DNA of 64,000 nt from Candidatus Latescibacterota bacterium (lineage in GTDB: Bacteria; Latescibacterota; UBA2968; UBA8231): contig CBDETK010000013.1 of the NCBI GenBank assembly GCA_965242865.1, positions 3,168,001 through 3,232,000 on the forward strand, read 5' to 3'. The translations under genes were made by a program, and so were the position numbers. Shown one piece after another: positions 17,331-63,412 of this stretch; positions within the stretch are counted from its first letter, which is position 1; each line of letters begins with the position of its first letter. Below the pieces are notes generated by a model, which saw nothing but the letters and a program-made list of their open reading frames with translations, did not search any database and had not been told where the DNA came from.

Positions 17331-17348
17331 GTGCCGGACCGGCCTCGT

Positions 17349-45592: not shown

Positions 45593-45607
45593 AACAGTAT
45601 CTCCGTA

Positions 45608-46420
45608 CTAAAAGGAGGCGTCCCGGACCACCGAGGCGATTCGACGAATGGCGACGTTCTGACGCGGACCGGTCCTTGCTACTGGGCGGTTCCAGTACGG
45701 CGGACAGGAGAGACGCCATTGATCTCCAGCGCGGCCTTTATCGCGCCCAGTATAGACGTAAGCTACTGAGGCGAGAACCTCGTCCGCGTTATTCCCACCG
45801 TGTTTTTCCAACTCTTGGAGTAACTGAGATTTCACTCTGTGCCCCAGCATGTCTATTTCGGATTCGGTCTCTATCTCTTTGGCTAAATCCACTGTCTGTT
45901 GCCATGCACATCCTTGGCGGATCATCCCGACTATCTTGCGTTTGCGGTCCAAGGTCTTGAGATACTGGCCTATGGAATCAACCGGATCTATCACCCAGAC
46001 CATCTTGACGAGCGGGCTTTCCTCGGCGAGCCAGATCCCCATATTCGCCCCCAGTCTGCAACCGACTATGGTCAAGCGCGAGGTATCAATATGGCCGCAG
46101 TCCCGCAGCAGGAAATTGAGGCCAACCTGATAATCCCGGCGCAGCTCATTGAGATTTGAAGACGCTATTTCGCCGCCTGTATTCCCGTGTCCCTGCGGTT
46201 CTACTCGGACGACGGACATCCCCAACTGCGCCATGGCCCGGCACAAATCAACCGACCAAGTGTAGCTGGCATAGAATTCGGTCAGCAAGGGATGCAGGTA
46301 GAGTACCGGCCGGCTCTGGCCATGGAGAGTACTTTTGGGCTGGTAGTGCGCGTAGTACAACCGCCCATCGAGTACGCCGTGCATCTCTCGACATTTCTCG
46401 CCCAACTCAACCGGCTGCAT
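45608..46420 (-). CDS. Alpha/beta hydrolase, exosortase-A-system hydrolase-2-like
   Basis: GHGNTGG, elbow motif GCRLG; start reassigned to MQPVEL after GGAGG. Confidence 0.65.
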   Translation of the reverse strand: MQPVELGEKCREMHGVLDGRLYYAHYQPKSTLHGQSRPVLYLHPLLTEFYASYTWSVDLCRAMAQLGMSVVRVEPQGHGNTGGEIASSNLNELRRDYQVGLNFLLRDCGHIDTSRLTIVGCRLGANMGIWLAEESPLVKMVWVIDPVDSIGQYLKTLDRKRKIVGMIRQGCAWQQTVDLAKEIETESEIDMLGHRVKSQLLQELEKHGGNNADEVLASVAYVYTGRDKGRAGDQWRLSCPPYWNRPVARTGPRQNVAIRRIASVVRDASF

Positions 46421-47543: not shown

Positions 47544-47564
47544 GATTTCTCTCCTCGCACTGGC

Positions 47565-48569: not shown

Positions 48570-48603
48570 TGTAGCACCTCTTTTCCCGACCCCCGACGAT
48601 CAG

Positions 48604-49182
48604 CTAACGGAAGTCGATATATCCCACGCCGATATAGTAGATTAAGGCCGCGGTTTCATACGCGAGTTGCCAAGCTAACTTGAACGGGTTTTCTGTAGAA
48701 TTGCCAAAACCAAGTACTGGGGCTAATCGCCACGATGCCTGTTGCACCGCAATCCCCTTCGATGAAAAGGTCGCCGCCGTGCGCAACAGATGCAGTGGGT
48801 ACGTGACGAGGATCGCCTCTTGCCAGTCTTGGTTGCGGAAAACTCGCTCTATGGTTCTGGCCTCGCCGTACGTCCCGCCCGGGTGCGAAGCCGAGACCGA
48901 AACCGTGCTGTTGGGGGGTATGCCCGCCGCCGCCGCCGCCCGCAATGGGGCGAACACCACTACTTTGGGAGCCATCCCCTGCTCGTAAAGTTCGGCGGCG
49001 CAATCCAACGCCCGAGCGACCTCTCTGCTCGGTCCACTCGGCACAACTATAGCGTCGGCTCGACCGCCGATGTGCGGTACGTAAAAGGCGCGATGCACAA
49101 TCCAAGCGGCGAGTGCCAGCATAATGCCCAAGCTGACCGCCAATAAGCCCACAGCCGCTTTTGTAGAGTAATTGTATCCCAT
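48604..49182 (-). CDS. YdcF/DUF218-like protein
   Basis: TM, ADAIVV, A.ELY..G, TYGEA, ILVT...HL.R, YE. Confidence 0.7.
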   Translation of the reverse strand: MGYNYSTKAAVGLLAVSLGIMLALAAWIVHRAFYVPHIGGRADAIVVPSGPSREVARALDCAAELYEQGMAPKVVVFAPLRAAAAAGIPPNSTVSVSASHPGGTYGEARTIERVFRNQDWQEAILVTYPLHLLRTAATFSSKGIAVQQASWRLAPVLGFGNSTENPFKLAWQLAYETAALIYYIGVGYIDFR

Positions 49183-49212
49183 CGCGGATATCCTCCTCTT
49201 CTATCCACTTTC

Positions 49213-50019
49213 TTACTTCAGCTTTCTGACGGCCCGTACCAACTGCGGGCAACTCCCTGCCAGTTTTTCGGACAACCGCATACGACGCACCCAAGCCGAC
49301 GACACCCAATTGTGCCGCCGGTCCCCTCGGCCTCCCAACTTCGCAACCACGCCTTGAGAATCGTCGTGGTCGTATAGCTCTCGCCGCTTGAGGAAATACG
49401 GATCCGACCGATGCGTATTGGTCCCCGCGACCGTGCTGCATGCTCCAGCATAACCGCACTCGATCACTACGCGCCGTACGCGGGCTGTTGCCAGCCCTCG
49501 CGGGTATGCGAAATACCGCACCGCTTTGCCGAGTCGATCCTCAATCCTGCGCTTTGAATCGCTTACTTCGCGGTAAATCCCGTCGAGGCTGAGCCGGGTA
49601 AGCATGGCGTGGGTCGCGCTGTGCGAACCAATTTCGACTCCCGCTGCGGACAGGGCCGCAATGTCTCGCCATCCGAGTAACTCCCTTCCTTCCAGCCGGC
49701 ACCCGACGAGATCGCTGACCACAAAGACGGTTGCTTTGAATCCGAAACGCTCCAACAGGGGCATGGCCTCGGTCAACACGCTCGCATAGCCATCGTCGAA
49801 AGTGATGGCAATTTCCCGATCAACCGAGTGGTTCCCCCAGCCGTAAAGCCTCTTCACCGACCTCTCAAGCGCAGTGGTGACATAGCCTAAGTTGCGAATG
49901 GCCTCAAGGTGCTCTGCGAACCTCCTCGGGGACACGCTCAACGGACCGTCCCCGGCCTCTATCGCATGGTAGGTCAGGATGGGGAGGGCACTGCGTCTTT
50001 GCGTTTTTTCTTTAGACAT
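49213..50019 (-). CDS. Polysaccharide deacetylase
   Basis: ILTYH, ITFDDGY, EIGSHSATH, FAYPRG. Confidence 0.92.
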   Translation of the reverse strand: MSKEKTQRRSALPILTYHAIEAGDGPLSVSPRRFAEHLEAIRNLGYVTTALERSVKRLYGWGNHSVDREIAITFDDGYASVLTEAMPLLERFGFKATVFVVSDLVGCRLEGRELLGWRDIAALSAAGVEIGSHSATHAMLTRLSLDGIYREVSDSKRRIEDRLGKAVRYFAYPRGLATARVRRVVIECGYAGACSTVAGTNTHRSDPYFLKRRELYDHDDSQGVVAKLGGRGDRRHNWVSSAWVRRMRLSEKLAGSCPQLVRAVRKLK

Positions 50020-50854
50020 AGCAATGCTCCGGTTGTGCTCGTCTGACCACCGGGCTGGGCGCAGAAAGCCAATCCACCGTCATCTGGACGACTTCCTTTA
50101 CTTTATCGTGCGAACGGTAGGAGTGGTCGCTATCCTCGACCGTTCTCGCCTCGAATGATATGCCGCCGATACTGCGGCACAACGCCTCATAGTCGCGGGC
50201 GCAGTCGCGGCTAGAGGGGTCGCCAGAGGGATAGATGCCGAGTGCGTGGACGGTTGCGCGGAAGCGGTCTTTGGGCACGAGGTTTTCGATGGGTATATGG
50301 TCAAGACTTTCTTCTTCAGAGGCGTCCACCCCTCTCGGACGGGCGAATTGGTTCTTGGCCTCGGCGTATAAACCCCAGAACTCCACGACCGCGGCTTTCA
50401 GGTATTTGGCGGACCGGCGGATGTCCATGGAGCGCTTATCGGCTAGTTCGGTGGGACTCCACATCACTAACCTTTGCCAGTTCACCGCCGCCTTTGCGAG
50501 ACAATAGAGCACCACCCAAGCACCAAAGCATTGGGCCACGCACGAGACCGCCTCAATGTCCGCTTCGCTTTCCAAGAAGCGTACGCTCTGGACGCAATCG
50601 CCCACTGGAGTGAATTGGCTGCCGGCTTCGCTGTTGCCCCGTCCGCCAAAATCGAACCGGAGACAGTGGAAGCCGGCATCTGCCAGTTGGCGTGCGCCGT
50701 ACACGTACATGCTATGGTCTCCGAACAGATGATCGGGTTCGCCGGGGACGAATAGTACGCCGTGCCGCAGGTCATGCCTAGGGCTAGGCTGATGCAGTAC
50801 GCCAAGGAGTTGGCTGTTTTCTCCTCGATAGACAACGGGTCGCTCGTTGGTCAT
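50012..50854 (-). CDS. Alpha/beta hydrolase, exosortase-A-system hydrolase-1-like
   Basis: GVLHQP, LRFDFGGRGNSE, Cys at the elbow (AQCFG), C-terminal DH. Confidence 0.7.
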   Translation of the reverse strand: MTNERPVVYRGENSQLLGVLHQPSPRHDLRHGVLFVPGEPDHLFGDHSMYVYGARQLADAGFHCLRFDFGGRGNSEAGSQFTPVGDCVQSVRFLESEADIEAVSCVAQCFGAWVVLYCLAKAAVNWQRLVMWSPTELADKRSMDIRRSAKYLKAAVVEFWGLYAEAKNQFARPRGVDASEEESLDHIPIENLVPKDRFRATVHALGIYPSGDPSSRDCARDYEALCRSIGGISFEARTVEDSDHSYRSHDKVKEVVQMTVDWLSAPSPVVRRAQPEHCYV

Positions 50855-51044: not shown

Positions 51045-51221
51045 CTAGTCGGGATCGCAACATTTATCTGTCGAGTAAACGCAGGTCTCCGTTCTCCGGA
51101 ACAGCGTTTCCTGTATCCACATGCTGGTGTAGTTGGACCGCTGCTCTGGCTTGCACTCGACGTGATACCCGAAAACGACCTTGCGGTTGTGCGCCCGGTT
51201 TCGCTTCGTCAGCTTTTTCAT
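51045..51221 (-). CDS. 58-aa putative RiPP precursor, copy 1 (absent from the ORF track)
   Basis: Manual translation MKKLTKRNRAHNRKVVFGYHVECKPEQRSNYTSMWIQETLFRRTETCVYSTDKCCDPD; RBS AAGGAGGTG; sigma-54 promoter upstream. Confidence 0.78.
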   Translation of the reverse strand: MKKLTKRNRAHNRKVVFGYHVECKPEQRSNYTSMWIQETLFRRTETCVYSTDKCCDPD

Positions 51222-51368
51222 ACTTCACCTCCTTCCTCAGGCCCCTCGGTCTCCTTGGCGTGATGCCCAACAGGTGGTCTCATTGCCCGCCTCCTTTCTG
51301 ACCCTGTTGGATATGTGAAGCATGTTCCTTTCGGCTTTCGTTTGTCATGGCCTTCTACCCAAAAGAAA

Positions 51369-51488
51369 AGCAAAATGTGTGCCATACTATCTAACTTGTT
51401 GAAAGACAACAAGATGTGTCGAATCGTCCTCTTGGGCACTCCATTGGCACTGTCCGCTGGTGATACAGGGGTGTCCGCTGGTGATACA
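51369..51488 (-). promoter_or_regulatory. Sigma-54 promoter, IHF-like site and tandem UAS
   Basis: TGGCACACATTTTGC; TTTCAA-CAAG-TTA; UAS boxes at 51451 and 51472. Confidence 0.82.
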
Positions 51489-51535
51489 CTCGCGATACCG
51501 ACCTGACGAAAACCAGCGTCCTCCGTCGGCCTCTC

Positions 51536-54022
51536 TCACTCGCTCTGCAAGCCTTTGGTGATCGGCTCCCGCATTAGGGCCACTGTGTGCAACAACACCC
51601 CCACACCGGCAGTGACCGCCGCGGCCAAACTGCCCAACCCCAAGAACAGCCAGTCATCGTCGATCCGTTGCGCGAACTGGTTCAGCCACTCTTCGACGCC
51701 CAAGTGCGCCAAAGGCCCGATTAGCAGGCATCCCGCCAACACCAACCACAGCAGTCGCCGCGCCAACAGGCTGGCCACATGATGCCCCTGAGCTCCCAAC
51801 GTCCGCATGAAGGCGATATTGCGCCGCTGATGGGACACCGTAATCGCCGTCAGGCCGTATGCCCCCAGCGCGGCGATCAGCACGGCCAACAGGGCCGCCC
51901 CCCCGACGACCCATAGCCAGATCCGGTCGTCTTGGTAATAAGCGACCAAGAAGTCTTCGAGCCTTGACAGATGCAGTACTTCGTCTGGGGCTACAGCTTT
52001 CCACGTACGCTCGATATGATCAAGAGCCTCGTTGCCTGCCTTGGGGTCGAGGCGTACGAAGAGCAACTCGTGCTGATTTACAGAGGAGTTGAGCAAGAGC
52101 ACCCCCGGCTCTTCAGAGTTGTTTTTTAGCGAATAAAAGTAATAGTCGCTCAGTACGCCTACGACGCGGCCTTGTCCATTGGGCATCTGACGGGCTAGGC
52201 GTTTCTCAAACTGCACGACTTGGCCGATGGGCTGATCCCAACCGGCTCGGGCGACGAAGGTCTCATTAACCAGAATGCCCGCTTGGTCCGGGCCCAAGTC
52301 TGTGCCCTGAACGAGTTGGAGGCCGAGCGTCTCGACAAAATGCCGATCCACGCCTAGACAACGCGCCTCAATAGTGCGGTCCTCACTGGGCAACATCGTC
52401 TTTTTTATCCACGGTGCCCCGCCCAATTCTTTCTCTAAAAAATGATCCTTACTCGTAGCCACCGACTTGATCCCACTATGGGCGAGCAGTCGCTCCTTGA
52501 GTAACTGCCGGTGTCTGCTATGGATGTCCTGGGACAACTCCCTTATTCTGAGCACCAGCACGTCGGCGGACACAAAGCCCAGATCGAATACCTGCAAGTG
52601 GTGCAGTTGCCGAACCATAACCAAACTCGTGCCCGCCAGCCCAGCACAGGCAGCGAACTGCATCACCACTAACGCACTGCCCAACGTAGATCGGCGGCTG
52701 AGCAAACGGGTGCTACGTACGGCCTCGCTGGGATTGGTCCGCGCAAGGATTAGGCCGGGATAGGCGGCGGCTAGTAGGCTGGTCAGCACCAACAGGACCA
52801 GCCCGCCAACGATGAAGGGGGGGGCAAGGTAATCGAGACGCAGGTCCTGACCCAACACCGCGTTGAACGCCGGCAACAGGGCTTCGCTGAGGCCCAAGCC
52901 GATTACTAGCGACACACCACACACCATCACCGTCTCGATCCAGAACTGCACCGGCAGTTGTCGACGGGTGGCTCCCAAGGCGACGCGCACCCCAACTTCT
53001 AGCCCGCGTGTACTCGCCCGAGCCGTAGCCAAGTTGACGTAGTTGACCACGGCTACGGCTAGCAGGAGCACGGCGATCGCCAAGACGATATAGGTCTCCA
53101 ATGGGTCGTGCGGCGAGGCGATACTTTCGTATCCTTTCCACTGCGTCACATCGGGGTCCGTGTGTATGGCCGACAGGGGTTGCAATTCCACTCTAAAATT
53201 CACCCCACGATCTACCTCTTGGCTGAAATCGGATGCGTTTTCAAGTACTAACTGCCGCATCAGTTCTTCTGCTTGCTTCAAATCGCCATCGTTGGCGTTC
53301 TCTTGAAACCTGACGAATAGGACGCTTCCCCAGTCCCAGAAGTCATCAAGCCAGCCCCATAGATACTCGGAGTTGTGAAAGGGCAACAGGATATTCAACT
53401 GAATCGACGAGTTCGCCGGCGGCGGGGCGACCACGGCTTGGATGGTGTATTCCTTGCGTTCGGATTGGGGCCACCCCACATCGATCCGTATTACCTGCCC
53501 CACCGCTGGCTCGTCTCCGAAGTAGCGGCGGGCGAACTCGCGGCTGACCACGACGCCGTCTTTTGCCTGCAGAGCCGTCCGCGGATCGCCCGCGTCGAGG
53601 GGGAAAGAGAACACCTCAAAGAAATTCTCATCGACCAGCAGAAACGGCTCGTCGTTCCACCTATCGCCTATCCGCACACGGATGCGCCGACTTTCCAGTG
53701 ACGCCCCGCGACTGGAAACTAACCGGACCGTTTCTTCAACTTGGGGCACGGCGTTCTGGATCGCCTCGGCCATGGCGACCGGAGTGTGATCCCCCATCTT
53801 CCTATTACCATATACTGGGCTTTTGGCACTGAACACCACTCGATAGAGGTGCCCCCCTTTCTCATGGAAGCTATCGTAGCTCCACTCGTGCGACACCAAC
53901 GCGTGGGCTAGAATGCAGGCACCAAAAGCCAGCGACAAACCGCACACCTCAATGAAGCTCAACAGCTTGTGCCGTCGCAGGATGCGCACGGCGGTCCGTA
54001 AGTAATTACCGATCATTCTCAT
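51536..54022 (-). CDS. MacB/FtsX-like ABC transporter permease 2
   Basis: Paralog of 41172-43643. Confidence 0.88.
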   Translation of the reverse strand: MRMIGNYLRTAVRILRRHKLLSFIEVCGLSLAFGACILAHALVSHEWSYDSFHEKGGHLYRVVFSAKSPVYGNRKMGDHTPVAMAEAIQNAVPQVEETVRLVSSRGASLESRRIRVRIGDRWNDEPFLLVDENFFEVFSFPLDAGDPRTALQAKDGVVVSREFARRYFGDEPAVGQVIRIDVGWPQSERKEYTIQAVVAPPPANSSIQLNILLPFHNSEYLWGWLDDFWDWGSVLFVRFQENANDGDLKQAEELMRQLVLENASDFSQEVDRGVNFRVELQPLSAIHTDPDVTQWKGYESIASPHDPLETYIVLAIAVLLLAVAVVNYVNLATARASTRGLEVGVRVALGATRRQLPVQFWIETVMVCGVSLVIGLGLSEALLPAFNAVLGQDLRLDYLAPPFIVGGLVLLVLTSLLAAAYPGLILARTNPSEAVRSTRLLSRRSTLGSALVVMQFAACAGLAGTSLVMVRQLHHLQVFDLGFVSADVLVLRIRELSQDIHSRHRQLLKERLLAHSGIKSVATSKDHFLEKELGGAPWIKKTMLPSEDRTIEARCLGVDRHFVETLGLQLVQGTDLGPDQAGILVNETFVARAGWDQPIGQVVQFEKRLARQMPNGQGRVVGVLSDYYFYSLKNNSEEPGVLLLNSSVNQHELLFVRLDPKAGNEALDHIERTWKAVAPDEVLHLSRLEDFLVAYYQDDRIWLWVVGGAALLAVLIAALGAYGLTAITVSHQRRNIAFMRTLGAQGHHVASLLARRLLWLVLAGCLLIGPLAHLGVEEWLNQFAQRIDDDWLFLGLGSLAAAVTAGVGVLLHTVALMREPITKGLQSE

Positions 54023-54171
54023 GGTGCTTGTTCCTTCCTACCTTGCATTTGCTTGTCGTCTGGTATCGCTTTTACTATGCCAAGGAGACGAGGGGCTTCG
54101 TTGGCTTGAGAGAGCCTAGCAATACGGCTACGGATAAGTGGACCTATCCTAGGTTCACCTATGGGACACTG

Positions 54172-54348
54172 CTAGTCGGGATCGCAACATTTATCTGTCG
54201 AGTAAACGCAGGTCTCCGTTCTCCGGAACAGCGTTTCCTGTATCCACATGCTGGTGTAGTTGGACCGCTGCTCTGGCTTGCACTCGACGTGATACCCGAA
54301 AACGACCTTGCGGTTGTGCGCCCGGTTTCGCTTCGTCAGCTTTTTCAT
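54172..54348 (-). CDS. 58-aa putative RiPP precursor, copy 2
   Basis: Identical to 51045-51221. Confidence 0.78.
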   Translation of the reverse strand: MKKLTKRNRAHNRKVVFGYHVECKPEQRSNYTSMWIQETLFRRTETCVYSTDKCCDPD

Positions 54349-54495
54349 ACTTCACCTCCTTCCTCAGGCCCCTCGGTCTCCTTGGCGTGATGCCCAACAG
54401 GTGGTCTCATTGCCCGCCTCCTTTCTGACCCTGTTGGATATGTGAAGCATGTTCCTTTCGGCTTTCGTTTGTCATGGCCTTCTACCCAAAAGAAA

Positions 54496-54615
54496 AGCAA
54501 AATGTGTGCCATACTATCTAACTTGTTGAAAGACAACAAGATGTGTCGAATCGTCCTCTTGGGCACTCCATTGGCACTGTCCGCTGGTGATACAGGGGTG
54601 TCCGCTGGTGATACA
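54496..54615 (-). promoter_or_regulatory. Sigma-54 promoter and tandem UAS
   Basis: Identical to 51369-51488. Confidence 0.82.
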
Positions 54616-54726
54616 CTCGCGATACCGACCTGATGAAAACCAGCACACCCTAATACCCCATCACGGCGTATCCATACGTAGCCGCCTCTGCGCTCCGAGA
54701 TGCGTTTTAATAGCGATTTCATGGCA

Positions 54727-55011
54727 CTATACCGAGACAGCCCGTCTGGATACGAATTCTGCTAGGGCTCGCAAACTACTCAGCACTTCGGGATTGAGGT
54801 CGTCGTCGTCAAACTCAAAGCCGAATCGTTCTTCTATTTCTTGCACATAAGTCAGAATTTCAACGGAATCCATTCCAAGGTTGCCGTCGAGAAGGGCTTC
54901 GTCCAAATCAATCAGATTCGGATCTATATCCACCTCCGTCACCTCCAAGAGTAGCACCTGTAACTCGTATAGGAGGCGTTCCATTCGACTATCGCCAGAT
55001 TGGCTCTCCAT
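54727..55011 (-). CDS. Acyl carrier protein
   Basis: Acidic, LGMDSVE phosphopantetheine motif, IEERFGFEF; RBS AGGAGG. Confidence 0.88.
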   Translation of the reverse strand: MESQSGDSRMERLLYELQVLLLEVTEVDIDPNLIDLDEALLDGNLGMDSVEILTYVQEIEERFGFEFDDDDLNPEVLSSLRALAEFVSRRAVSV

Positions 55012-55114
55012 TGTTTGTTTCCTCCTAGTTAGTATAGCCGCGCCTCGGCCTTAGAAGCCGTCTGAATCTCCCTCTGGAGTCGTGTTGAGCACGGTAAGGA
55101 CAGCAGACCGCTTC

Positions 55115-56887
55115 TTATCCCACAGCCGCCGCGAAGTGCCTACGACCCTGTATCTCTTCTGTCCCATCCAACGCAAAAAGCTGCTGAAAATGCTTTCCCT
55201 TTCTCTTCATTTCTGCTGGAGTCCCCTCTTCTACAATTCTTCCGTTCTCAATGCAGAAGACCCAGTCCATTCTTTCTATGACTTCTACATTGTGGCTCAC
55301 TACTATGGTGAACATGTTTTTTCGAGTTTCCAGCAGTTCCAAAACCGATTCTTCCATCTGTCCATCCACCATTGAAGTGCCCTCGTCTATGACTAAAATA
55401 TCGGGATCAGACATTAGTGCTCTCGCTATGCACACCCTCTGCCGTTGTCCGCCCGACAGCCGCGCCCCATTATCACCAATTGTCGCACCGCTAGCCTTCT
55501 CTGTGACGAGTTCAGGTATCCTAAGAGAGTGCAGTATCCTATCTGCATCGGCGACCTCCTCCTGCTTTCCATAAAGCACGTTATCCAACACAGGCCGATT
55601 GAAAAGCAGTGTTTCCTGCGGCACCATGCCGATATTCAGATCCTTCAACTTTATGCTGTCTTTGCCAAATGCACTATGGACGGCTATCTCTCCATCCATG
55701 GGGTCCAAAAGCCCGCACACCATATTGACCAACGTAGTCTTTCCGCTCCCGTTCTCGCCCACAAGCGCGTAGCGCATGCCTCTTTTGAGGTCGAGGTCAA
55801 TGTCGTGCAGAACCAACCCTCCGTGATAGCCTGCTGAGACTTTTCTCATTGTTATCCGCGAGCATTCGGGCCGATTTCGTCTTTCTCCAGCTAGTTCGAT
55901 AGTGTCTTTTAGATGCAGGTTTTCCAGTTCCTCAATCCGCCTCAACGAGACGCTGCCCTCTACCAAGGTCGTATATACTCCCCCTAACTTCCTGACAGGT
56001 TCCACGAGCCAGTTGATGTACTGGCCAAACGCGACGAGAGCCCCAACGGTCATATCCTCCTCTAGTACATCGTGGGCACCGACGAGTAGAACCAAGATCG
56101 GCCCTAAGCCGAGGAAAAACGAGGAACAGGAATGTCTGGTCGCGCCGAAAACCGTGCGCTTTACTTCGAGATCGCCGAGAGCACCTACTTCTTTCTTAAT
56201 ATCCTTGGTAGTATTGGCCCCTTGGGCAAAGGCTTGCACCACCTTCAAGTTCTGGTAAGTCTCCACGAAACGGGCCGTGAGGCGACTTTTGCATTCAGTG
56301 GACATCTGGGTGTACTCTAAGAGCTTGGCTTGAGTAAATTTTGCTATCACCAGAAAAAAGGGGAGTCCAATCACGCAAATAAAGAGCAGCTTCAGATTCA
56401 TCCATCCCAGAATGCCCACAATAATCACCAATCGCAACCCATTTTTCACTACATTTAACAGCGTTTGGGTCAAGACCTTCTGCACATTACCGCAATCTGT
56501 CATCGCCCGATACGAAAGGTCAGCGGCGTTAAAATTGCGTAGATTGAAGTACGGGATCTCTATTATTTTTGCCGCGAGTTCCCCACGTAACTTCAGCATG
56601 ATGTTTCTGCCTATATGAGCACTCAACAGGCGTGAGAGTACGGACAGCACTAACCGCACAATCATCAGACCGAACATGCCGAATACGATCCAGATCAATA
56701 GCTCGCCATTGCGCTCTAGGAGCACCTTATCGATAAGCGTCTTGGTCAGTAGAGGCAAAGCGAGCACAGCCGCTATAGAGATGCAACTGAGGATCAGGGC
56801 CAAGAGCTGGAGCCGCCATTCCCAGCTTATGTACTTGACGTACGGAGTTAGCACACTGAGCAAGTTCGCATTTCTCTTAAACATCAC
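55115..56887 (-). CDS. ABC exporter, fused TMD-NBD (no C39 peptidase domain)
   Basis: TM domain, GENGSGKT, LSGGQRQR, ILVIDEGTS. Confidence 0.92.
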   Translation of the reverse strand: MMFKRNANLLSVLTPYVKYISWEWRLQLLALILSCISIAAVLALPLLTKTLIDKVLLERNGELLIWIVFGMFGLMIVRLVLSVLSRLLSAHIGRNIMLKLRGELAAKIIEIPYFNLRNFNAADLSYRAMTDCGNVQKVLTQTLLNVVKNGLRLVIIVGILGWMNLKLLFICVIGLPFFLVIAKFTQAKLLEYTQMSTECKSRLTARFVETYQNLKVVQAFAQGANTTKDIKKEVGALGDLEVKRTVFGATRHSCSSFFLGLGPILVLLVGAHDVLEEDMTVGALVAFGQYINWLVEPVRKLGGVYTTLVEGSVSLRRIEELENLHLKDTIELAGERRNRPECSRITMRKVSAGYHGGLVLHDIDLDLKRGMRYALVGENGSGKTTLVNMVCGLLDPMDGEIAVHSAFGKDSIKLKDLNIGMVPQETLLFNRPVLDNVLYGKQEEVADADRILHSLRIPELVTEKASGATIGDNGARLSGGQRQRVCIARALMSDPDILVIDEGTSMVDGQMEESVLELLETRKNMFTIVVSHNVEVIERMDWVFCIENGRIVEEGTPAEMKRKGKHFQQLFALDGTEEIQGRRHFAAAVG

Positions 56888-58008
56888 AGTGTAGTCCCGT
56901 GTGGTTCTTCTTTCATCAATCGCAGGCTATTAACGTGCGAGTTGCTGTAGTCAGGCTTGTTCTGCCGCAGGGCAGGACACGCTATCAGCGAAATGCAGCA
57001 GTCCCTAAGTGCCTCTAAATCCAACTCGCGATTCTCTCGGTAGTGTCTGAGGCCATTTTGCAGATGAGGTATAAGGCTTAATGGGATAGTATCGACAAAC
57101 TCGAAAAGATCTAATTCAAATTTGCCGCGCTTGCTGACCTCAAAGTTGTATGTCTTGTACGTAAAAAGCTCAAACAATATCCCGCACAACGCATAATGGT
57201 CTGTTTCCTGCGTGAATTGCTCAAACCGCAAAACCTGCTCAACGGGAGCATAGGCGGGACTGTACTTCCCCATTTTGTACTCTTTGCCCGCCGGGTGAGG
57301 CTCTCCAGCCGTTACTGTCGTCTCGAAATCGACGAGCGTTACCCCTAATTCGCTCAGGCCGACAGAGAACGGATCCCGAGGACACACCATGATATTTCCG
57401 GGGTTAAGATCGAGAAAGACCTTACCTTTAGCGTGTAACAAGCGAAGGGCCTCCGTCAGCTTAGCTGCTACCCACAATTTCATATCGAGGGTCAGTTCTT
57501 GCGGATACTGGTCTCTGCTAGGTATCGGATAGTACTTATGCAGCGACTTGCCTTCAACGAGTTCGTACACGTAATACAGGATTTTGTAGCGCGTTGGGAC
57601 TATGCCTTTGCAATAGTACTTAACCGCCAGTCCCTTCTCGATGGGCTTCGCGAAACTTTCGTGCTCCAACTCTTGGGCAACGTTAAACTCATTGTCGTAA
57701 AATGCCCTTTCGGCCAACCAAGTCCGAGAACCTACTCTGTCCTCACCCTCTGTCTTTACGTCGCCTAGGAGACCGATATCTTGGCTAGGCAGGACGTACT
57801 TTATGAATACCTGTTTTCCGGTCAGAGTGTCTCGGGCTGCGAGGATATTATGACGTCTTGTGGAAAGTCGTTCGGGAGAGAGCCTGTATTTTCCCAGCCG
57901 GTGAATTGGACGTCTCCTCGCTGGCACGACTTTCGGCTCGAGTACGCAGATAGGCATGCTGCGGAAAATCCACTTTGCAAACTGGCGAATGTGCCTGTTG
58001 ATTTCCAT
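56884..58008 (-). CDS. Stand-alone Ser/Thr-type kinase
   Basis: VFIK, YELVEG, LHAKGKVFLDLNPGNIMV, LVDFE, YAPVE, D.YALC; start after AAGGAGG. Confidence 0.8.
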   Translation of the reverse strand: MEINRHIRQFAKWIFRSMPICVLEPKVVPARRRPIHRLGKYRLSPERLSTRRHNILAARDTLTGKQVFIKYVLPSQDIGLLGDVKTEGEDRVGSRTWLAERAFYDNEFNVAQELEHESFAKPIEKGLAVKYYCKGIVPTRYKILYYVYELVEGKSLHKYYPIPSRDQYPQELTLDMKLWVAAKLTEALRLLHAKGKVFLDLNPGNIMVCPRDPFSVGLSELGVTLVDFETTVTAGEPHPAGKEYKMGKYSPAYAPVEQVLRFEQFTQETDHYALCGILFELFTYKTYNFEVSKRGKFELDLFEFVDTIPLSLIPHLQNGLRHYRENRELDLEALRDCCISLIACPALRQNKPDYSNSHVNSLRLMKEEPHGTTL

Positions 58009-58056
58009 GTTAGCCTCCTTTATGTAGCAATCGCGGTAAGTTCTTGCTCGCACCCA

Positions 58057-58695
58057 TTAGCGGGACGCATCAGCGACCACTCCTTTCGTTGCACAACTGG
58101 CCAAGAACCGGCGACGGCTTTCCTCTATATCGTCGGCAAATTGCTCGACCATAAAATCGCCGATGCGCCCCGAACTATCGACGCAGAGCATGACACCGTG
58201 TATTTCTCTCGATCCGAGCAGTTGTAGCAACGGTTCTGGCACATGCTCCTTTTCTATTGTGACAGGCTTTCTTTTGGGAGCGTACGAGGCACTTATCTCC
58301 AGCACCTTTATCAGGCTCTCCTCCCCTTCAAACGCGCCGATGTAGAGCGGCTCGTTTCCAATCTCCAGATTGCTTTGTCCCTCGTACCAGTACCCAAACA
58401 TATCGACGTAACAGGCACCGCACTTTGCCTTGTCGTCGAATAGCATAATTATATCGCCATCTCGCCGAATAAAATCTCCCAAGCGGACTATCTCTACCCC
58501 CTGCCGAGTAGGCAACTCGTCCAAGGCGAGTCCCAGTACCCGATCTCCCGCGACTTCCAAGGCAACTTCCCTCTTTAACTCCTCGATCTCGTGCCGGCGC
58601 TCGTCCCGGCCTTGGTTCTTGCCAACCAAGAAAGACACCCCTATGGCTAGGGCCGCCAGCAGCACAACGGCCAACCGTCTGATGTGTGTCATCAT
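58057..58695 (-). CDS. Membrane-anchored CxxC (thioredoxin-like?) protein
   Basis: N-terminal TM, IIMLFD..AKCGAC, MLCVDSSGRI. Confidence 0.55.
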   Translation of the reverse strand: MMTHIRRLAVVLLAALAIGVSFLVGKNQGRDERRHEIEELKREVALEVAGDRVLGLALDELPTRQGVEIVRLGDFIRRDGDIIMLFDDKAKCGACYVDMFGYWYEGQSNLEIGNEPLYIGAFEGEESLIKVLEISASYAPKRKPVTIEKEHVPEPLLQLLGSREIHGVMLCVDSSGRIGDFMVEQFADDIEESRRRFLASCATKGVVADASR

Positions 58696-58745
58696 TCGCT
58701 CCTTGTTGTTGGAGTTGATATTGCTCGCAGTCTCAGACCGCACTA

Positions 58746-59813
58746 TTAGGCATCCAAAACCGCGATCCTGTACACCTTTACCACTGGATCGGCTAAGTTG
58801 CCGGAATCGTCGATATAGGCTTCCTGCCGCATATAGAGCAGGCCCTCGTCAGCAGTGCCCACTAACCAGCCATAATCGGAACCAATACGGCCGACTCGTC
58901 TGAACTGGTCGTCATATACCAGATAGTAGCCGAACTCTTCGCCTTCCTCCCTCATCTCCTCAGTCTCGGGAGCCACGACGAGTACGATGTACAGACCTAC
59001 CTCCTGCAAGTAGTACAGGTCTAAGAGATGGGCTGCATTCGACCACTCTTCGACGAAACGCGGGTCACGCTTGGAATCTACCTCGCTGAACAGGTCATTG
59101 GAGACCTGCCGCTCATCTACCAAGTACTTGCCGATGAGCTGCCCCTTGTTGATGTCGTACACCCGCAGGGCATTGTCCAAATTCGTCGTCGCTACCAAGC
59201 TGTCGCCTTTCAGGACCATCCCTTTGTTTTCGTACTTCCGCAGCAGCGACATATTGCCAATAGCAAGCAGCCCGTGCTCGCCATCCTCCGTCGGTCCCAC
59301 TCTGAACAGAAAGTGGCCCCTCGATACCAGTTTGGCGTACCTGCCCGCACCGTTGTACTCCATCTTCTCCACGTACGACCGAGGCCGCTTCTCCACATAC
59401 TTTTTGTCCTTGTCAAACTCGTATGCGTATCGGCTATCCAGCACGATGAGACCACCGCTCGGAGTCCATATAAGGTACTTCGGTTTGGTGAAGTTGCGGC
59501 CCTCTCCTTCCAAATGGCGGTACTCATCAATGACGAGACCGTCCGCCGTTACCTCGACCACGTTGCCGCTCTTTTTGTCCGCAACGACCAGCGTTCCATT
59601 CCCATTGGGCAACACGTGAGTAGCACTGACCAGTTTTTTCCCGTCCTCGGCCCGCAGAACGAGAGTTCCTTCTTCCCGCAGGTCCATTTTGAACGGCGAA
59701 GACCCCGCCTGTTGCACAGGGCAATCTGCCTCTGGATCAACGCCGCATCCCAAAATCGCGGGCAAGGCGAAAAACGCGGAGTTCAAAACCCCTATAATGG
59801 CTGCCTTTACCAT
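58746..59813 (-). CDS. Beta-propeller (6-bladed/NHL-like) lipoprotein
   Basis: Lipobox ILGC; G.LVVAD, GEG..F..P, G.LIVLD, YLVYD blade motifs; start after GGAGG. Confidence 0.7.
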   Translation of the reverse strand: MVKAAIIGVLNSAFFALPAILGCGVDPEADCPVQQAGSSPFKMDLREEGTLVLRAEDGKKLVSATHVLPNGNGTLVVADKKSGNVVEVTADGLVIDEYRHLEGEGRNFTKPKYLIWTPSGGLIVLDSRYAYEFDKDKKYVEKRPRSYVEKMEYNGAGRYAKLVSRGHFLFRVGPTEDGEHGLLAIGNMSLLRKYENKGMVLKGDSLVATTNLDNALRVYDINKGQLIGKYLVDERQVSNDLFSEVDSKRDPRFVEEWSNAAHLLDLYYLQEVGLYIVLVVAPETEEMREEGEEFGYYLVYDDQFRRVGRIGSDYGWLVGTADEGLLYMRQEAYIDDSGNLADPVVKVYRIAVLDA

Positions 59814-59815
59814 GG

Positions 59816-61759
59816 CTATTCCTCCTGACGGTTGCTGTCGAAGTAATCTTCGACGAGATTGACCACCCGATTCACCCCTGCGGGAAAACTGATACACACT
59901 GCGGGTAGGCCGGTTGCATCGTTCAACCTGCTTTCCATAGCATCCACTTGCGCTTTGTCCAGCACTCGCTCCTTTGTGATGAGCCGACCGATCCCCTCCA
60001 AGATCTGCCGCTGCCGTGCGATGAACGCCAACGCTATGGTATCGGCCTTGCCCAGCCCTCTGAGGACTGCTAGACAATCCTCAATGTGATCCAACTCGTC
60101 GAACTCGTTGACCAGCAGTACGTAGGCATCGGGTGCGGTGCCGAACATGGTCGCTATCGCGGGCAGCGAATACAGACTGTGCTTCACCGCCAGAGACGGC
60201 AGGGACACCCCGGATTGCGCCCCGACCAAGACGATGTCAGGTGTGGATTGGGCGATGCCTACCATGGCGCTCTGCAAAAGGGTCACATGACTCTCCATGG
60301 GAATATCCACGCTGACCAGCCCCTCGTATCCGTTGGGGAAAGTGTAGTCAGCACCCAACAATTCCCCTTGGTGTTCTGTCGCTAGCCAACTCGTCGCGTA
60401 CCCCCTACTCTTGAGTTCTTTCCTTATCAAAAGCTGGGCCGTGACTTTCCCCTGGTCCTGCGAGGTGCCAAAAATTCCCAAGACAGGGCAGGTGATCGGT
60501 TCGTCTGGAGCAAAGGCACGGACCAAGGCGCGATAGACCTCTGTATCCACTATCGGCGCTGCCAAGCGCAACCCGCGCTTCTCGAACAACTCAGCATAGG
60601 GCACTTCGTAGAGCAAACACGCACGAGACAAGCTGTAAACGTTGCATCCCTTGGCTAGACAGACCTCCAGCGCTTCCCGCAACAGATCTCTCCGCTTGGC
60701 CTCACTATAGGCGTCCAAATGGCCTATGATCAGCGTATCAACGCCGTCTAACGCCTCTTCTAAGACCAATCGGACCGATGCACCGACAGGTTCCGCGCCA
60801 ATTGCCTCGCCTGCGTCCAATCCTTTTAGCTTGGACGGGGGGATGTCCACCACGCTAGCAATTTCAAACGACAACTGATCGGCGAAGCGGACCAACGACC
60901 TCATTTCCTTGTTGAAAGGATATACGGCTGCCCGCCCGATCCACCCGATGTCGGGTTTTATCGACTCCTTCCCCCAGGTAACCGCACCGCTGATCCACGT
61001 TGGCCCCGCTTCATTCCCGCTCTGGTGAACCATCGGCGGGGCGGTCTCGGCAGAAAAGCGGTGGAATTGATCCTCAATGCGACCTCCCTGTACACGTCGC
61101 CGCTGCTCTAGGAGTAAGGCGATGCCCGACACCCTTGCAGCCGCAAAGCTCGAAGCGGCTATTAGTGCTTTTTGCCCTTCCTTCCAGACGACTCGTTGCC
61201 TGTCACCCCGTGCAATGAATTGGACAGCAGCGTCTGAATCGTAGAAATAGCCGTACTTGCCACGAACCCGGCCGCCATTGACGCCGTACACGCAATCAAA
61301 CTTGGCCGGCGACGAGAGCAGGGCGGGATCGCGGTTCGCACTGACCAGCAATATGCCAGCATCACTCAAGTCTCGGCAGGCCGCATACAGTTCGTCCTCC
61401 CAATCGCGCTCCAGCGTCCCCAAGCTCAGATTGACCGCATCAGCCCCAAGCTCCTTGCACTGGCCTAGGGCTTGGAGAATGACTTCGGGATATGCTCGTA
61501 ACTCCTCCCCGAAGACTTTGATGCTGCTAATCGTCGCCGCGGGTGCAACACGCGCAATCAGGTCCATACAAGCGGTCCCGTGGCCGATTTCGTCCATGCC
61601 TTCCTGCGGCCCCCCTTTGCTCCCCGTCAAGTCAATGACCGCCCCCAACGCGATGTCCTCCAGAGATTTGCCTAGACCGCTGTCTATGACCGCTACGTGC
61701 ATTCCGCTGCCGTGAGACGACTCCAACTCGTGTGCGTGATGCTGACTCAATGCAGGCAT
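59816..61759 (-). CDS. S8 subtilase fused to a DUF1611/TIGR04066-like P-loop domain
   Basis: VAVIDSG, HGTAC, VNLSLG, SSFAAARVSG; then AVYPFNKE...GLDAG and PVLGIFGTSQDQGK. Confidence 0.78.
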   Translation of the reverse strand: MPALSQHHAHELESSHGSGMHVAVIDSGLGKSLEDIALGAVIDLTGSKGGPQEGMDEIGHGTACMDLIARVAPAATISSIKVFGEELRAYPEVILQALGQCKELGADAVNLSLGTLERDWEDELYAACRDLSDAGILLVSANRDPALLSSPAKFDCVYGVNGGRVRGKYGYFYDSDAAVQFIARGDRQRVVWKEGQKALIAASSFAAARVSGIALLLEQRRRVQGGRIEDQFHRFSAETAPPMVHQSGNEAGPTWISGAVTWGKESIKPDIGWIGRAAVYPFNKEMRSLVRFADQLSFEIASVVDIPPSKLKGLDAGEAIGAEPVGASVRLVLEEALDGVDTLIIGHLDAYSEAKRRDLLREALEVCLAKGCNVYSLSRACLLYEVPYAELFEKRGLRLAAPIVDTEVYRALVRAFAPDEPITCPVLGIFGTSQDQGKVTAQLLIRKELKSRGYATSWLATEHQGELLGADYTFPNGYEGLVSVDIPMESHVTLLQSAMVGIAQSTPDIVLVGAQSGVSLPSLAVKHSLYSLPAIATMFGTAPDAYVLLVNEFDELDHIEDCLAVLRGLGKADTIALAFIARQRQILEGIGRLITKERVLDKAQVDAMESRLNDATGLPAVCISFPAGVNRVVNLVEDYFDSNRQEE

Positions 61760-61802: not shown

Positions 61803-61923
61803 AGCAAGATGTATGCCATGTTCTATATACTATTGAAAAACAAGGAGATGCGTTGAATCGGCCTCTGGACCGACCTAAGGGCGAGTGTCCGCTGGTGATA
61901 CAGGGGTGTCCGCTGGTGATACA
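61803..61923 (-). promoter_or_regulatory. Sigma-54 promoter and tandem UAS
   Basis: Minus strand TGGCATACATCTTGC; TGTCCGCTGGTGATACA at 61886 and 61907. Confidence 0.85.
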
Positions 61924-62035
61924 CTTTAGCTCACAGGCAGGACGATGCGTAGCGTCCGCGATTGACTTGGGGGGATGGACTCGTTATATGTCTCAGATAT
62001 GAACTACAAACGCTTGGAACTTGGGAGCGGCGACC

Positions 62036-63408
<1,373 letters not shown>

Positions 63409-63412
<4 letters not shown>

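Follow-up and report, generated by a model that had tools for sequence, protein, structure and literature searches.

A small open reading frame (ORF) for 58 amino acids, carried in two identical copies, is probably translated into the precursor of a cysteine-rich RiPP/bacteriocin-type peptide that would be cleaved from its leader, exported, and matured by enzymes encoded next to it. The ORF lies in a 64,000-nucleotide stretch of DNA from an uncultured marine bacterium of the Latescibacterota (the window; C13:3168001-3232000). By sequence comparison, the cluster is a new system of the CLI_3235/TIGR04066 kind that bears a kinase and is free of radical SAM, and its chemistry is putative. Features are listed in Table 1.

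Table 1. Features of the peptide cluster and its regulon, in window coordinates
Feature	Position	Strand	Basis or remark
ADOP permease 2	41172..43643	-	Nucleotide sequence 84% identical to permease 1; probably starts with the ATG at 43643
Fourth enhancer pair (43867-43904) and sigma-54 promoter TGGCATACATTTTGC (43786-43800)	43786..43904	-	Ahead of ADOP permease 2
Genes after precursor B	44282..50854	-	Profile matches, synteny with sister genomes
Precursor copy B	51045-51221	-	58 aa; ORF named in the earlier note; identical to copy A
Enhancer pair (51451-51488) and sigma-54 promoter (51370-51384), precursor B	51370..51488	-	Motif counts
ADOP permease 1, duplicated MacB/FtsX-type	51536..54022	-	Profile matches
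Precursor copy A	54172-54348	-	58 aa; 19-residue basic leader ending VVFGY, 39-residue core
Enhancer pair (54578-54615) and sigma-54 promoter (54497-54511), precursor A	54497..54615	-	Motif counts
Acyl carrier protein (ACP), phosphopantetheine serine (LGMDSVE)	54727..55011	-	PP-binding 2.1e-8; TIGR04069 E 0.033
Half-size ABC exporter (transmembrane domain and ATPase), no C39 peptidase domain	55115..56887	-	Profile matches
Stand-alone Hanks-type protein kinase, 374 aa	56884..58008	-	Pfam/profile matches
CxxC protein (CGAC motif), N-terminal membrane anchor	58057..58695	-	Sequence, hhalign
Lipoprotein (lipobox ILGC), probable NHL/DUF5128-like beta-propeller, periplasmic	58746..59813	-	Sequence, hhalign
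S8 and DUF1611 P-loop fusion	59816-61759	-	Profile matches, conserved residues, predicted fold
Enhancer (TGTCCGCTGGTGATACA twice, 61886-61923) and sigma-54 promoter TGGCATACATCTTGC (61804-61818), maturation operon	61804..61923	-	
Response-regulator-type sigma-54 activator (REC, AAA+, HTH_8)	62021..63412	+	Pfam matches; divergent from maturation operon

The precursor ORF and its regulation

The 58-residue peptide given in an earlier note on this DNA was the exact translation of copy B. The note had placed the ORF downstream of the ACP gene and its neighbors; this is directly so for the copy at 54172, while the cited copy at 51045 lies beyond an ADOP permease gene. Both copies are inside a 640-bp repeat (50878-51517 and 54005-54644, 99.7% identity) that flanks the permease 1 gene. 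Since they are identical, they provide no added coding evidence on their own.

Homologues of the peptide (E <= 6e-8) were found in 4 of the 61 genomes searched, the window's own genome included, with two copies in G000, one in G005, four in G003, and two in G008. The 19-residue leader was near-invariant in the homologues of three sister genomes, with many synonymous codon changes. When eight gene copies were compared, 9 of the 19 leader codons showed synonymous variation only, and the variable sites at codon positions 1, 2, and 3 numbered 5, 3, and 10. The cores varied in sequence and in length (peptides of 50-58 aa) with the frame kept, and C23, T46-C47, and C54-C55 of the copy A core were constant, the four cysteines being the fixed part of otherwise variable cores. 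A conserved leader followed by a variable core with four fixed cysteines is the pattern of a precursor peptide, and its occurrence in several copies further supports the view that the small ORF behaves as one. The ribosome-binding site (RBS) was also conserved ahead of the homologous genes, and three further members, all with the same leader, emerged when 1.84 billion representative proteins were searched with a profile. Compared with G003, the precursor was 53-63% identical and the cluster proteins 76-91%, showing that the enzymes have changed more slowly than the precursor. Of the 40,405 ORFs of 35-110 aa that begin with ATG in this genome, the two precursor copies alone fitted the expression ^M[KR].L.K.{10,14}[AG]Y, which was composed after the sequences had been seen.

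The ideal RBS and the dedicated sigma-54 promoter described in the earlier note were both found, and at both copies: a strong RBS (GGAAGGAGGTGAAGT) precedes the ATG and TGGCACACATTTTGC, with 0 mismatches to TGGCAC-N5-TTGC, lies upstream. With up to one mismatch allowed, this consensus had 15 matches in the window, compared to 5.5 on average and at most 11 in 100 shuffles. Two copies of TGTCCGCTGGTGATACA at a spacing of 21 bp, forming a tandem TGT-N11-ACA enhancer, were located ~70-120 nt upstream of each promoter. The window contains eight exact copies of TGTCCGCTGGTGATACA versus 0.14 expected at up to three mismatches. The same enhancer and promoter precede the precursors, the S8-DUF1611 operon, and ADOP permease 2, which delimits a regulon with four promoters between about 41172 and 63412; the span of 51045-61759 given previously was too short for this co-regulated unit. 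No precursor ORF follows the fourth enhancer and promoter. The arrangement ahead of the maturation operon was conserved in orthologous loci, L036 among them. The sigma-54 activator (Sigma54_activat 2.2e-66, Response_reg 8.1e-23, HTH_8 3.2e-15) is presumed to bind the paired enhancer sites. Besides the second precursor copy, the earlier note had missed both ADOP permeases, the bEBP regulon with its four promoters, and the S8-DUF1611 family at large.

The maturation operon and its relatives

The fusion protein has no signal peptide and consists of a short QhpE-like S8 serine protease (residues ~1-235) and a complete DUF1611/TIGR04066-like P-loop protein (~276-647), with matches to QhpE (7.4e-26), TIGR04066 (2.1e-17), Peptidase_S8 (2.2e-7), and DUF1611_C (1.8e-11). 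The S8 triad and the P-loop were conserved in 76 fusion sequences; H60, S204, and the P-loop residues G431, T432, Q436, G437, and K438 were invariant, and D26 and N110 were at least 90% conserved. The AF2 model (pLDDT 86.6) gave Foldseek matches to 2g0t and 2obn, which are DUF1611 proteins, and to subtilisins. At the sequence level the C-terminal half is homologous to TIGR04066, and its predicted fold is that of DUF1611. We propose that the fusion acts as the leader peptidase and in a nucleotide-dependent step. Literature searches turned up no role for DUF1611 in any peptide system.

An S8 triad and a DUF1611 P-loop in one ORF, with ACP and ABC exporter genes nearby, mark an unnamed S8-DUF1611 fusion family, for which 288 related stretches were found in genome_contigs. 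Of the 78 loci kept, 66 had an ACP gene after the fusion gene and 56 had a gene for an ABC exporter. In the fusion gene tree, the window fell within a clade of 14 rows (SH-like support 96). Ten of these count as leader rows, namely the window, eight loci with the leader motif, and the ortholog L036, on a contig that stops short of the expected precursor site. The entire cluster was syntenic in G003 and G005.

In a sister clade of seven loci, a strong RBS came first, then a leader of the form MKxLTKP...IYGY and a variable core with cysteines. The gene order there was fusion, CxxC redoxin, precursor, propeller, ADOP permease (in 5/7), and ABC exporter, and at one locus (L059) the precursor-propeller-ADOP unit was present twice. 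A radical SAM enzyme was found in two of the seven loci. This clade adds rhodanese and MauE/DoxX redox proteins (MauE family match 2.6e-25).

These relatives helped to assign two window proteins. The lipoprotein had no direct Pfam match, and hhalign paired it with the sister-clade propeller family (79%, E 1.6e-5), which itself matches Pfam DUF5128 (7.8e-9). The CxxC protein was paired with a sister-clade 240-aa family (85%, E 6.2e-6), 16 members of which included 12 with AhpC-TSA and 11 with Redoxin matches in Pfam, and it is probably a periplasmic thioredoxin-fold (TlpA/redoxin-like) thiol-disulfide oxidoreductase. The ABC exporter matched ABC_membrane (2.3e-27), ABC_tran (3.8e-31), and, from profile position 156 on, the NHLP bacteriocin exporter (1.3e-68). 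The kinase matched Pkinase (9.4e-10), and on inspection K85, D215, N220, and D242 were present (residues numbered as in the 389-aa ORF). Among 5.8 billion proteins, no more than 14 close relatives turned up at 80% identity or above, and the kinase could be regulatory or unrelated.

The two permeases matched TIGR03434 over their full length (E 4e-66 and 9.5e-67), with two MacB_PCD/FtsX units per protein, at 223.7 and 225.7 bits against a cut-off of 622. Permease 1 also matched MacB_PCD (1.2e-27), FtsX (5.7e-21), and DarB (2.1e-18). No ATPase partner for the permeases was found in the locus. Permease 1 is probably co-transcribed with precursor A, as there is no terminator-like site between them, and a role as immunity or export partner is proposed.

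Proposed pathway and comparison with known systems

In the pathway that we propose, the response-regulator-type activator would bind the tandem TGT-N11-ACA sites and turn on the four promoters, which serve the maturation operon, precursor A with permease 1, precursor B with its downstream genes, and permease 2. The QhpE-like S8 domain would cut the basic leader off in the cytoplasm after V-F-G-Y, a site whose hydrophobic P4 and aromatic P1 suit subtilisin-type enzymes. The DUF1611/TIGR04066 domain and the ACP would perform a nucleotide-dependent step, possibly acyl transfer, and the lineage-specific kinase may phosphorylate the Ser/Thr-rich core. The ABC exporter would carry the peptide over the inner membrane. 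The membrane-anchored CxxC protein would make or shuffle disulfides among the four invariant cysteines, and the propeller lipoprotein would also act in the periplasm. The ADOP (MacB-type) permeases, duplicated with the precursor, may provide self-protection or onward export. The processing core is homologous to the clostridial CLI_3235/TIGR04066 system, minus its radical SAM maturase.

The CLI_3235 system belongs to the Bacillota, whereas the loci closest to the window are titled Latescibacterota, in line with the different phylum that the earlier note had suggested. The system is exemplified by the published SacP23 cluster of Paenibacillus polymyxa (PMC10731318), and a further cluster of this type is described from Roseburia (PMC4573289). 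In the clusters described in these two reports, genes for an S8 peptidase, a small carrier protein, and an ABC exporter accompany one for a TIGR04066/DUF1611-type protein; the window precursor likewise has S8 peptidase, ACP, and ABC exporter genes alongside, as the earlier note had it. The CLI_3235 leader pattern given there was genuine, since two TIGR04065 members begin MKQLVKRTNANYETLEAY and MRKLGKKIGVAKNTVQAY and continue into a Cys-rich core. These two precursors adjoin TIGR04068 and stand-alone TIGR04066 genes. Both systems have a short precursor with a leader running from M[KR]xLxK to [AG]Y, then a Cys-bearing core.

Profile scores place the window outside the named families. The peptide had no TIGR04065 match at E <= 0.1, and no match was found at E <= 10 anywhere in the genome; the cut-off is 26 bits, and as a positive control matches above it were obtained in 2 of 301 Bacillota genomes. 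Homology of the fusion protein to TIGR04066 was clear (63.2 bits, profile positions 2-237 of 361) but fell below the 200-bit cut-off, compared to 359-391 bits in true CLI_3235 loci and 124.7 and 123.7 bits for two other fusion genes in this genome. The ACP reached 14.6 bits with TIGR04069 against a cut-off of 70 and is a generic PP-binding carrier protein with its serine. Because the TIGR04066 and TIGR04069 scores are far under the cut-offs, formal CLI_3235 membership fails.

The lack of a radical SAM gene stated in the earlier note held, as all 20 PF04055 matches of the genome lay outside the window. The nearest were ~163 kb away on either side, and the best genome match to the CLI_3235-system enzyme (86 bits) was ~485 kb from the window. 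In contrast, the true loci have TIGR04068 directly between the precursor and TIGR04066. The window carries S8 and DUF1611 in one fused gene, whereas the CLI_3235 clusters have them as separate genes, as described for SacP23 (PMC10731318). The window also adds the kinase, the periplasmic CxxC redoxin, the propeller lipoprotein, the ADOP permeases, and sigma-54 control.

Likenesses to other systems were partial. A PapB-like radical SAM/SPASM enzyme, as in the ranthipeptides (freyrasin, PapA/PapB), is encoded upstream of the fusion gene in 8 of the 78 related loci, and one representative scored 5.5e-62 with the PapB family and 8.9e-52 with TIGR04068. The window has no PapB-like enzyme, and no radical SAM/SPASM maturase of the ranthipeptide/sactipeptide kind is encoded with its precursor. 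The PapB motif, given as Cys-X3-Asp in a review (PMC8172795), was not conserved in the cores, CCDPD being confined to the window and G005. QhpE, the leader peptidase for the quinohemoprotein amine dehydrogenase small subunit, was the named family that the S8 domain matched best, at 90.8 against a cut-off of 165, and two other fusion genes in this genome matched it at up to 7.2e-43. Unlike the QhpE system, the window has no dehydrogenase subunits and no QhpD, and the substrate would be a free 58-aa peptide with several variable copies. The MauE family protein and redoxin-like CxxC protein of the sister clade resemble the MauE/MauD-type helpers of methylamine dehydrogenase.

Alternative readings

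The peptide could instead be a secreted bacteriocin or an auto-inducing signal, with feedback via the sigma-54 two-component activator, that undergoes only leader removal and disulfide formation, the kinase, DUF1611-ACP, and glycan genes having envelope tasks in the same regulon. We consider this rather unlikely. The four invariant cysteines and the periplasmic redoxin-like protein are consistent with it, as are the rhodanese and MauE/DoxX proteins of the sister clade, and one enhancer type governs precursor and processing genes, as expected for an auto-induction loop. The genes after precursor B encode an alpha/beta hydrolase, a polysaccharide deacetylase, a DUF218 protein, a WecA-like sugar-phosphate transferase, a GT4 glycosyltransferase, a second hydrolase, and an FAD oxidoreductase, in an order syntenic in the sister genomes. 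It is uncertain that they are part of the peptide pathway, and since the glycan and hydrolase genes share the precursor B promoter, the regulon may have a role in the envelope. The kinase is restricted to the window's lineage, but its gene is inside the maturation operon, between the CxxC and exporter genes. In addition, the fusion of the protease to DUF1611 and the ACP gene that follows it in most related loci argue that DUF1611, ACP, and protease belong to one pathway.

A lanthipeptide-like product, for which the kinase would phosphorylate Ser/Thr, the phosphate would be eliminated, and Cys would add to the dehydro residues in a split form of class III/IV chemistry, is improbable. The best named matches of the kinase were the LanL (4e-13) and LanKC (2.2e-9) kinase domains, and the core is Ser/Thr-rich (NYT[ST][ST], invariant T46-C47) with four invariant cysteines. 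However, these matches of 36-49 bits (LanL 48.6) compare with cut-offs of 575-650 (LanL 650), and generic defence-system kinases match equally well. Class III/IV synthetases combine lyase, kinase, and cyclase, whereas the window kinase stands alone, and profile searches of the cluster proteins found no phospho-lyase or LanC-like cyclase domain in any of them.

We give very little credence to the ORF being an upstream regulatory ORF, an attenuation leader peptide for the ADOP permease gene with no product. Copy A does lie between a promoter and the permease 1 gene with no terminator between, and precursor-ADOP pairs recur at other loci, but the gene after copy B encodes a hydrolase, one G003 copy is upstream of the fusion gene, and permease 2 has the same promoter without any ORF. 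An invariant Cys pattern in a hypervariable core and a conserved GY-ending leader are not attenuator features, and RNA downstream of the ORF folded no better than shuffled sequences (z -0.03).

Equally remote is the idea of an anti-phage defence system or of a chance ORF in a duplicated promoter region: PADLOC models matched the kinase (mad6 2.3e-14, MkoA 2.5e-14, PD-T4-6) and the S8 domain (subtilase, 4.3e-8) and the ORF is within the 640-bp repeat, but the PADLOC matches were domain-level only, with none for the propeller, CxxC protein, ACP, precursor, or ADOP permease, and selection at the protein level together with in-frame length variation rules out a chance ORF.

Repeats with a probable precursor gene, and the four-promoter regulon

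Translation of the minus-strand ORF proposed as a hidden precursor in the earlier note (precursor B) gave exactly the 58 residues quoted there, and an identical second ORF (precursor A) was found. Each ORF lies in one copy of a 640-bp repeat, and the two copies are 99.7% identical. The repeat contains, in order, two TGTCCGCTGGTGATACA sites (TGT-N11-ACA) with 21 bp spacing, a perfect sigma-54 promoter TGGCACACATTTTGC, a 5' leader of ~140 nt, the RBS GGAAGGAGGTGA, the 58-aa precursor ORF, and the initial 13 nt of a gene for an ADOP permease, which is of the MacB/FtsX type.

The 17-mer TGTCCGCTGGTGATACA occurs 8 times in the window compared to an expected 0.14 (up to 3 mismatches). The eight sites form four pairs, each 70-120 nt upstream of a minus-strand sigma-54-type promoter. 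A sigma-54 activator of the response-regulator type is divergent from the operon of the S8-DUF1611 fusion (an S8 protease joined to a DUF1611/TIGR04066-like P-loop protein). These four enhancer/promoter sets thus define the unit as a four-promoter regulon of about 22 kb. The extent of 10.7 kb given in the earlier note was thus too small. Enhancer and promoter are also present in the orthologous loci of three sister genomes (G003, G005, and G008) and in the related locus L036. The layout is listed in the table.

Features of the peptide regulon and its duplicated segments, in descending order of coordinates
Feature	Coordinates	Strand	Remarks
Sigma-54 activator, response-regulator type	62021-63412		divergent from fusion operon
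Promoter 1	61804-61923	-	precedes fusion operon
S8-DUF1611 fusion	59816-61759	-	maturation operon gene 1; QhpE 7.4e-26, TIGR04066 2.1e-17, DUF1611_C 1.8e-11
Lipoprotein	58746-59813	-	gene 2
Membrane-anchored CxxC protein	58057-58695	-	gene 3
Protein kinase	56884-58008	-	gene 4; Pkinase 9.4e-10, LanL kinase domain 4e-13
ABC exporter without peptidase domain	55115-56887	-	gene 5
ACP	54727-55011	-	gene 6
640-bp repeat, copy A	54005-54644
Promoter 2		-	precedes precursor A
Precursor A	54172-54348	-
ADOP1	51536-54022
640-bp repeat, copy B	50878-51517
Promoter 3		-	precedes precursor B
Precursor B	51045-51221	-
Two alpha/beta hydrolases, deacetylase, DUF218 protein, WecA-like transferase, GT4 glycosyltransferase, FAD oxidoreductase			beyond precursor B
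Remnant of permease 3' end	43945-44100
Promoter 4	43786-43904	-	beyond hydrolase/glycan block; precedes ADOP2
ADOP2			second ADOP permease
Copy of hydrolase gene's 5' part	40333-40646

Self-comparison of the window shows past segmental duplication: ADOP2 shares 84% nucleotide identity with ADOP1, and pieces of a permease gene and of a hydrolase gene lie outside their full-length copies. A 185-aa ORF at 43715-44272 (-) is probably no gene, as it is made up of the permease remnant and the repeated enhancer/promoter region.

Contigs of four sequencing runs were compared over 50500-55200, and no piece among those listed covers the entire stretch; these runs may be the assembly's own source and would then not be independent of it. 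In three of them (X1, X2, and X4), a joint at 50877/51538 omits 660 bases, the entire repeat copy B, with a fit of only 26-30 letters on the shorter side. X1 also contains a 484-nt contig that fits both repeat copies, at a depth of 417 compared to 173-198 in its neighbours. A variant that lacks copy B, arranged as in G005, may co-exist. Another possible explanation is that the joint is an artefact of the repeat.

In G005, a single-contig genome, the orthologous cluster (L030/L031, G005:C1:4872000-4905000) is syntenic and several of its genes are in pieces: the ABC exporter is split into three ORFs, and the ADOP permease, kinase, and activator into two each. This may reflect cluster decay or indel errors of the assembly. 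Just past the window end, a stretch of the window's own genome (L119, G000:C13:3231400-3241000) encodes a PAS histidine kinase (L119:4232-5566), which could be the sensor for the sigma-54 activator, in addition to a type I restriction-modification methylase and two proteins with ankyrin repeats (464 and 145 aa).

Conservation of the putative precursor peptide

Clear precursor matches were found in four of the 61 genomes searched, all from one genus: the window's own genome (two copies), G005 (one), G003 (four), and G008 (two). The remaining matches at E up to 1 were at chance level. A profile search of 1.84 billion representative proteins returned three further members and nothing else, and among the ORFs of 78 related loci the precursor profile (alignment A1) matched the G003 contig only. 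Judged by sequence, the precursor family is real but narrow.

In the alignment, the leader is almost invariant (MKKLTKRNR.HNRK..FGY), and the core varies in sequence and length with C23, T46-C47, and C54-C55 kept. Synonymous-only variation was seen in 9 of the 19 leader codons, and the variable leader sites fall at codon positions 1/2/3 in the numbers 5/3/10. All homologues stay in frame despite lengths of 50 to 58 aa. In the comparison with G003, identity is 76-91% for the cluster proteins and 53-63% for the precursors. This conservation pattern is that of a putative precursor peptide or bacteriocin and of neither a chance ORF nor an attenuator.

The first of the main rivals is a bacteriocin or auto-inducer peptide with disulfides as its sole modification. 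A second main rival is a split, lanthipeptide-like route. The checks on the kinase yielded an unusable AF2 model from the single sequence (pLDDT 31.5), only 14 close orthologues in a word-based search, too shallow for a useful alignment, and only generic stand-alone kinase clusters in the ESM Atlas. The precursor could instead be an upstream regulatory ORF, but its conservation is unlike that of an attenuator. No intrinsic terminator was found 3' of the ORF, which would suit this rival, and the predicted folding of the 166-nt spacer RNA is no stronger than that of shuffled sequences (z -0.03), which speaks against it. A defence system, the last main rival, has matches in PADLOC, but at domain level only. 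When the fusion (alignment A2) and the precursor (alignment A1) were modelled as a complex, the score was 0.25, below the mark of 0.32, and weighs neither way.

Small ORFs of similar design were found beside genes for relatives of the fusion. In a quick FastTree phylogeny with long branches, the window fusion shares a long branch with L036 and L037 inside a clade of 14 rows (SH-like support 96) that also includes L039-L044, L046, and L059. Seven of these loci (L039, L040, L041, L042, L044, L046, and L059) contain a small ORF with the leader MK[TAIF]L[TS]KP...IYGY, a variable Cys-bearing core after it, and AAAGGAGGTGAT upstream of the start; relaxing the leader search gave no match in L038, L043, or L045. 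Their genes run from the fusion through the CxxC protein, precursor, propeller lipoprotein, ADOP permease (five of seven), and ABC exporter to rhodanese and MauE in the seven loci with leaders. Two precursors are present in L046 and in L059, and the latter locus repeats the precursor-propeller-ADOP unit. By profile comparison, the window CxxC protein resembles the redoxin family of these loci (85%, E 6.2e-6), 12 of whose 16 members match AhpC-TSA, and the window lipoprotein resembles their propeller family (79%, E 1.6e-5). A radical SAM enzyme occurs in this clade only in L044 and L059, and the kinase is confined to the window's own lineage.

The sister-clade loci (L039-L046 and L059) also carry sugar-nucleotide and glycan genes, namely UDP-glucose dehydrogenase-type enzymes, DUF354, a GT4 glycosyltransferase, and a Bac_transf enzyme. 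The WecA, GT4, and deacetylase genes beside the window cluster parallel these. That such genes recur hints that the peptide system may be connected with a lipid-linked glycan.

The fusion family and the clostridial CLI_3235 system

About 40 relatives of the fusion were found in a collection of 5.8 billion proteins and 288 related stretches in genome_contigs. By their titles, the 78 kept loci are mostly from Latescibacterota, with others from Gemmatimonadota, Bacteroidota, Ignavibacteriota, Poribacteria, KSB1, and Bacillota. Across 76 aligned fusions, H60, S204, and the P-loop residues G431, T432, Q436, G437, and K438 are invariant, and D26 and N110 are at least 90% conserved. In the AF2 model (pLDDT 86.6), the first half matches subtilisins and the second half both solved DUF1611 proteins, 2g0t and 2obn.

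Neighbours were counted from naive ORFs of at least 70 aa in single-linkage groups (E below 1e-10, coverage at least 60%), up to 10 kb per side and with loci cut by contig ends included. Of the 78 loci, 66 have an ACP, whose gene usually comes immediately after that of the fusion. The other conserved neighbours are an ABC exporter (56 loci), an HlyD-type protein (40), a 344-aa protein (22), a 240-aa CxxC protein (20), a DUF5128-like propeller (17), a rhodanese (17), a BtrH-like acyltransferase (12), and a PapB-like radical SAM/SPASM enzyme (eight). The fusion-plus-ACP module thus pairs with different tailoring enzymes. Conserved small ORFs of 77-94 aa in other loci were dropped, since they look like out-of-frame translations.

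The window's genome has two further S8-DUF1611 clusters, L006 (G000:C13:3583000-3602000) and L007 (G000:C13:2907000-2926000), whose fusions share 36% identity with that of the window and 60% with each other. L006 encodes an ABC exporter and a ResA-like thioredoxin as well as an SBP-like protein of the peptide-binding kind and a histidine kinase with a sigma-54 activator. In L007, an ACP and a 354-aa protein occur together with a phosphatase, a GT4 glycosyltransferase, CPBP proteases, and a TPR protein. No peptide bearing a leader of the window type was found in either.

According to passages in PMC10731318 and PMC4573289, published clusters of the clostridial CLI_3235 system comprise a precursor, an ABC transporter, TIGR04068 (a radical SAM enzyme), TIGR04066, TIGR04069 (ACP-related), and a subtilase. 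Two true members were obtained from 301 Bacillota genomes. Their precursors start MKQLVKRTNANYETLEAY and MRKLGKKIGVAKNTVQAY, continue into Cys-rich cores, and are directly followed by TIGR04068 (615 and 567 bits) and a stand-alone TIGR04066 (359 and 391 bits). The earlier note had likened the window cluster to this system, and the likeness held for the leader design and the processing proteins (protease, DUF1611 protein, carrier protein, and exporter). However, the window proteins fell short of every HMM membership threshold, and TIGR04065, the precursor family, gave only chance-level matches in five genomes holding related loci. The leader expression used on the window's genome was written post hoc, with the sequences already seen. 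The window also differs in having no radical SAM enzyme, as the earlier note had observed: none of the genome's 20 PF04055 matches lies inside the window, and no TIGR04068-type enzyme is near it. Given the failed thresholds and this absence, the cluster seems to work like a relative of CLI_3235 and does not belong to it.

A proposed pathway and other features of the window

Sequence elements, homologies, conservation, and synteny were observed directly, and from them we infer every step of the following pathway. The sigma-54 activator would switch on the four promoters. The cytoplasmic S8 domain would then cleave after VFGY. Subtilisins prefer a hydrophobic P4 and an aromatic P1, which this site fits, and leaders of the sister clade and CLI_3235 end in I-Y-G-Y, L-E-A-Y, and V-Q-A-Y. 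The DUF1611 domain and ACP would perform one further step. Acyl transfer is our favoured speculation, since DgcN N-acetyltransferase (the NCBIfam name of one DUF1611 family) matches a related fusion of the window's genome (1.6e-8) and BtrH-like acyltransferases accompany related loci. The kinase could perhaps phosphorylate the Ser/Thr-rich core. The ABC exporter would export the peptide, the redoxin-like protein would handle its four cysteines, and the ADOP permeases would provide immunity or onward export.

A broader joint reading is possible, though we consider it rather doubtful. S8-DUF1611 with ACP would be the core of a large superfamily of ribosomal peptide pathways, with 288 or more loci found chiefly in Latescibacterota, Gemmatimonadota, and Bacteroidota. 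Its tailoring enzyme would be swappable: a radical SAM/SPASM enzyme, a BtrH-like acyltransferase, rhodanese or MauE, or, in the window, the kinase. New DUF1611-ACP chemistry would be coupled to leader removal, for example by acylation of the newly exposed N-terminus. So-called orphan ADOP permeases would be dedicated immunity or export partners of the peptides, and precursor-permease cassettes would duplicate and diversify jointly.

If the proposed pathway is true, it supplies TIGR04066/DUF1611 and the carrier protein with a substrate that can be tested and a compact set of genes. In the non-subscription literature searched, these proteins appear only as names in cluster tables with no activity or function described, and no description of this cluster type was found. 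It would also mean that a CLI_3235-type processing core can work with no radical SAM enzyme, alongside a protein kinase. The ADOP permeases, a large family on which almost no literature was found, would gain a candidate physiological partner. Finally, a multi-copy, rapidly diversifying peptide system would be under sigma-54 control in an uncultured candidate phylum; record titles suggest that some of the closest loci are from host-associated bins.

Elsewhere in the window, a tandem array at 4957-35565 (+) comprises ten or more paralogues, each about 2.15 kb long (71-85% nucleotide identity; proteins of 707-778 aa). A scan of one member showed FG-GAP repeats together with a FlgD-Ig domain and, at the C-terminus, a sorting domain of the T9SS type. 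Scattered among these genes are three DUF4159-like ones, each encoding about 440 aa (20245-21567, 24644-25981, and 35797-37137). A 549-bp repeat (4158-4704 and 17141-17689, 94% identical) lies just upstream of an FG-GAP array block in each copy and contains TGGCACGAAACTTGC, a perfect sigma-54 promoter, at 4366 and 17349, with upstream sites unlike the TGT-N11-ACA pair of the peptide regulon.
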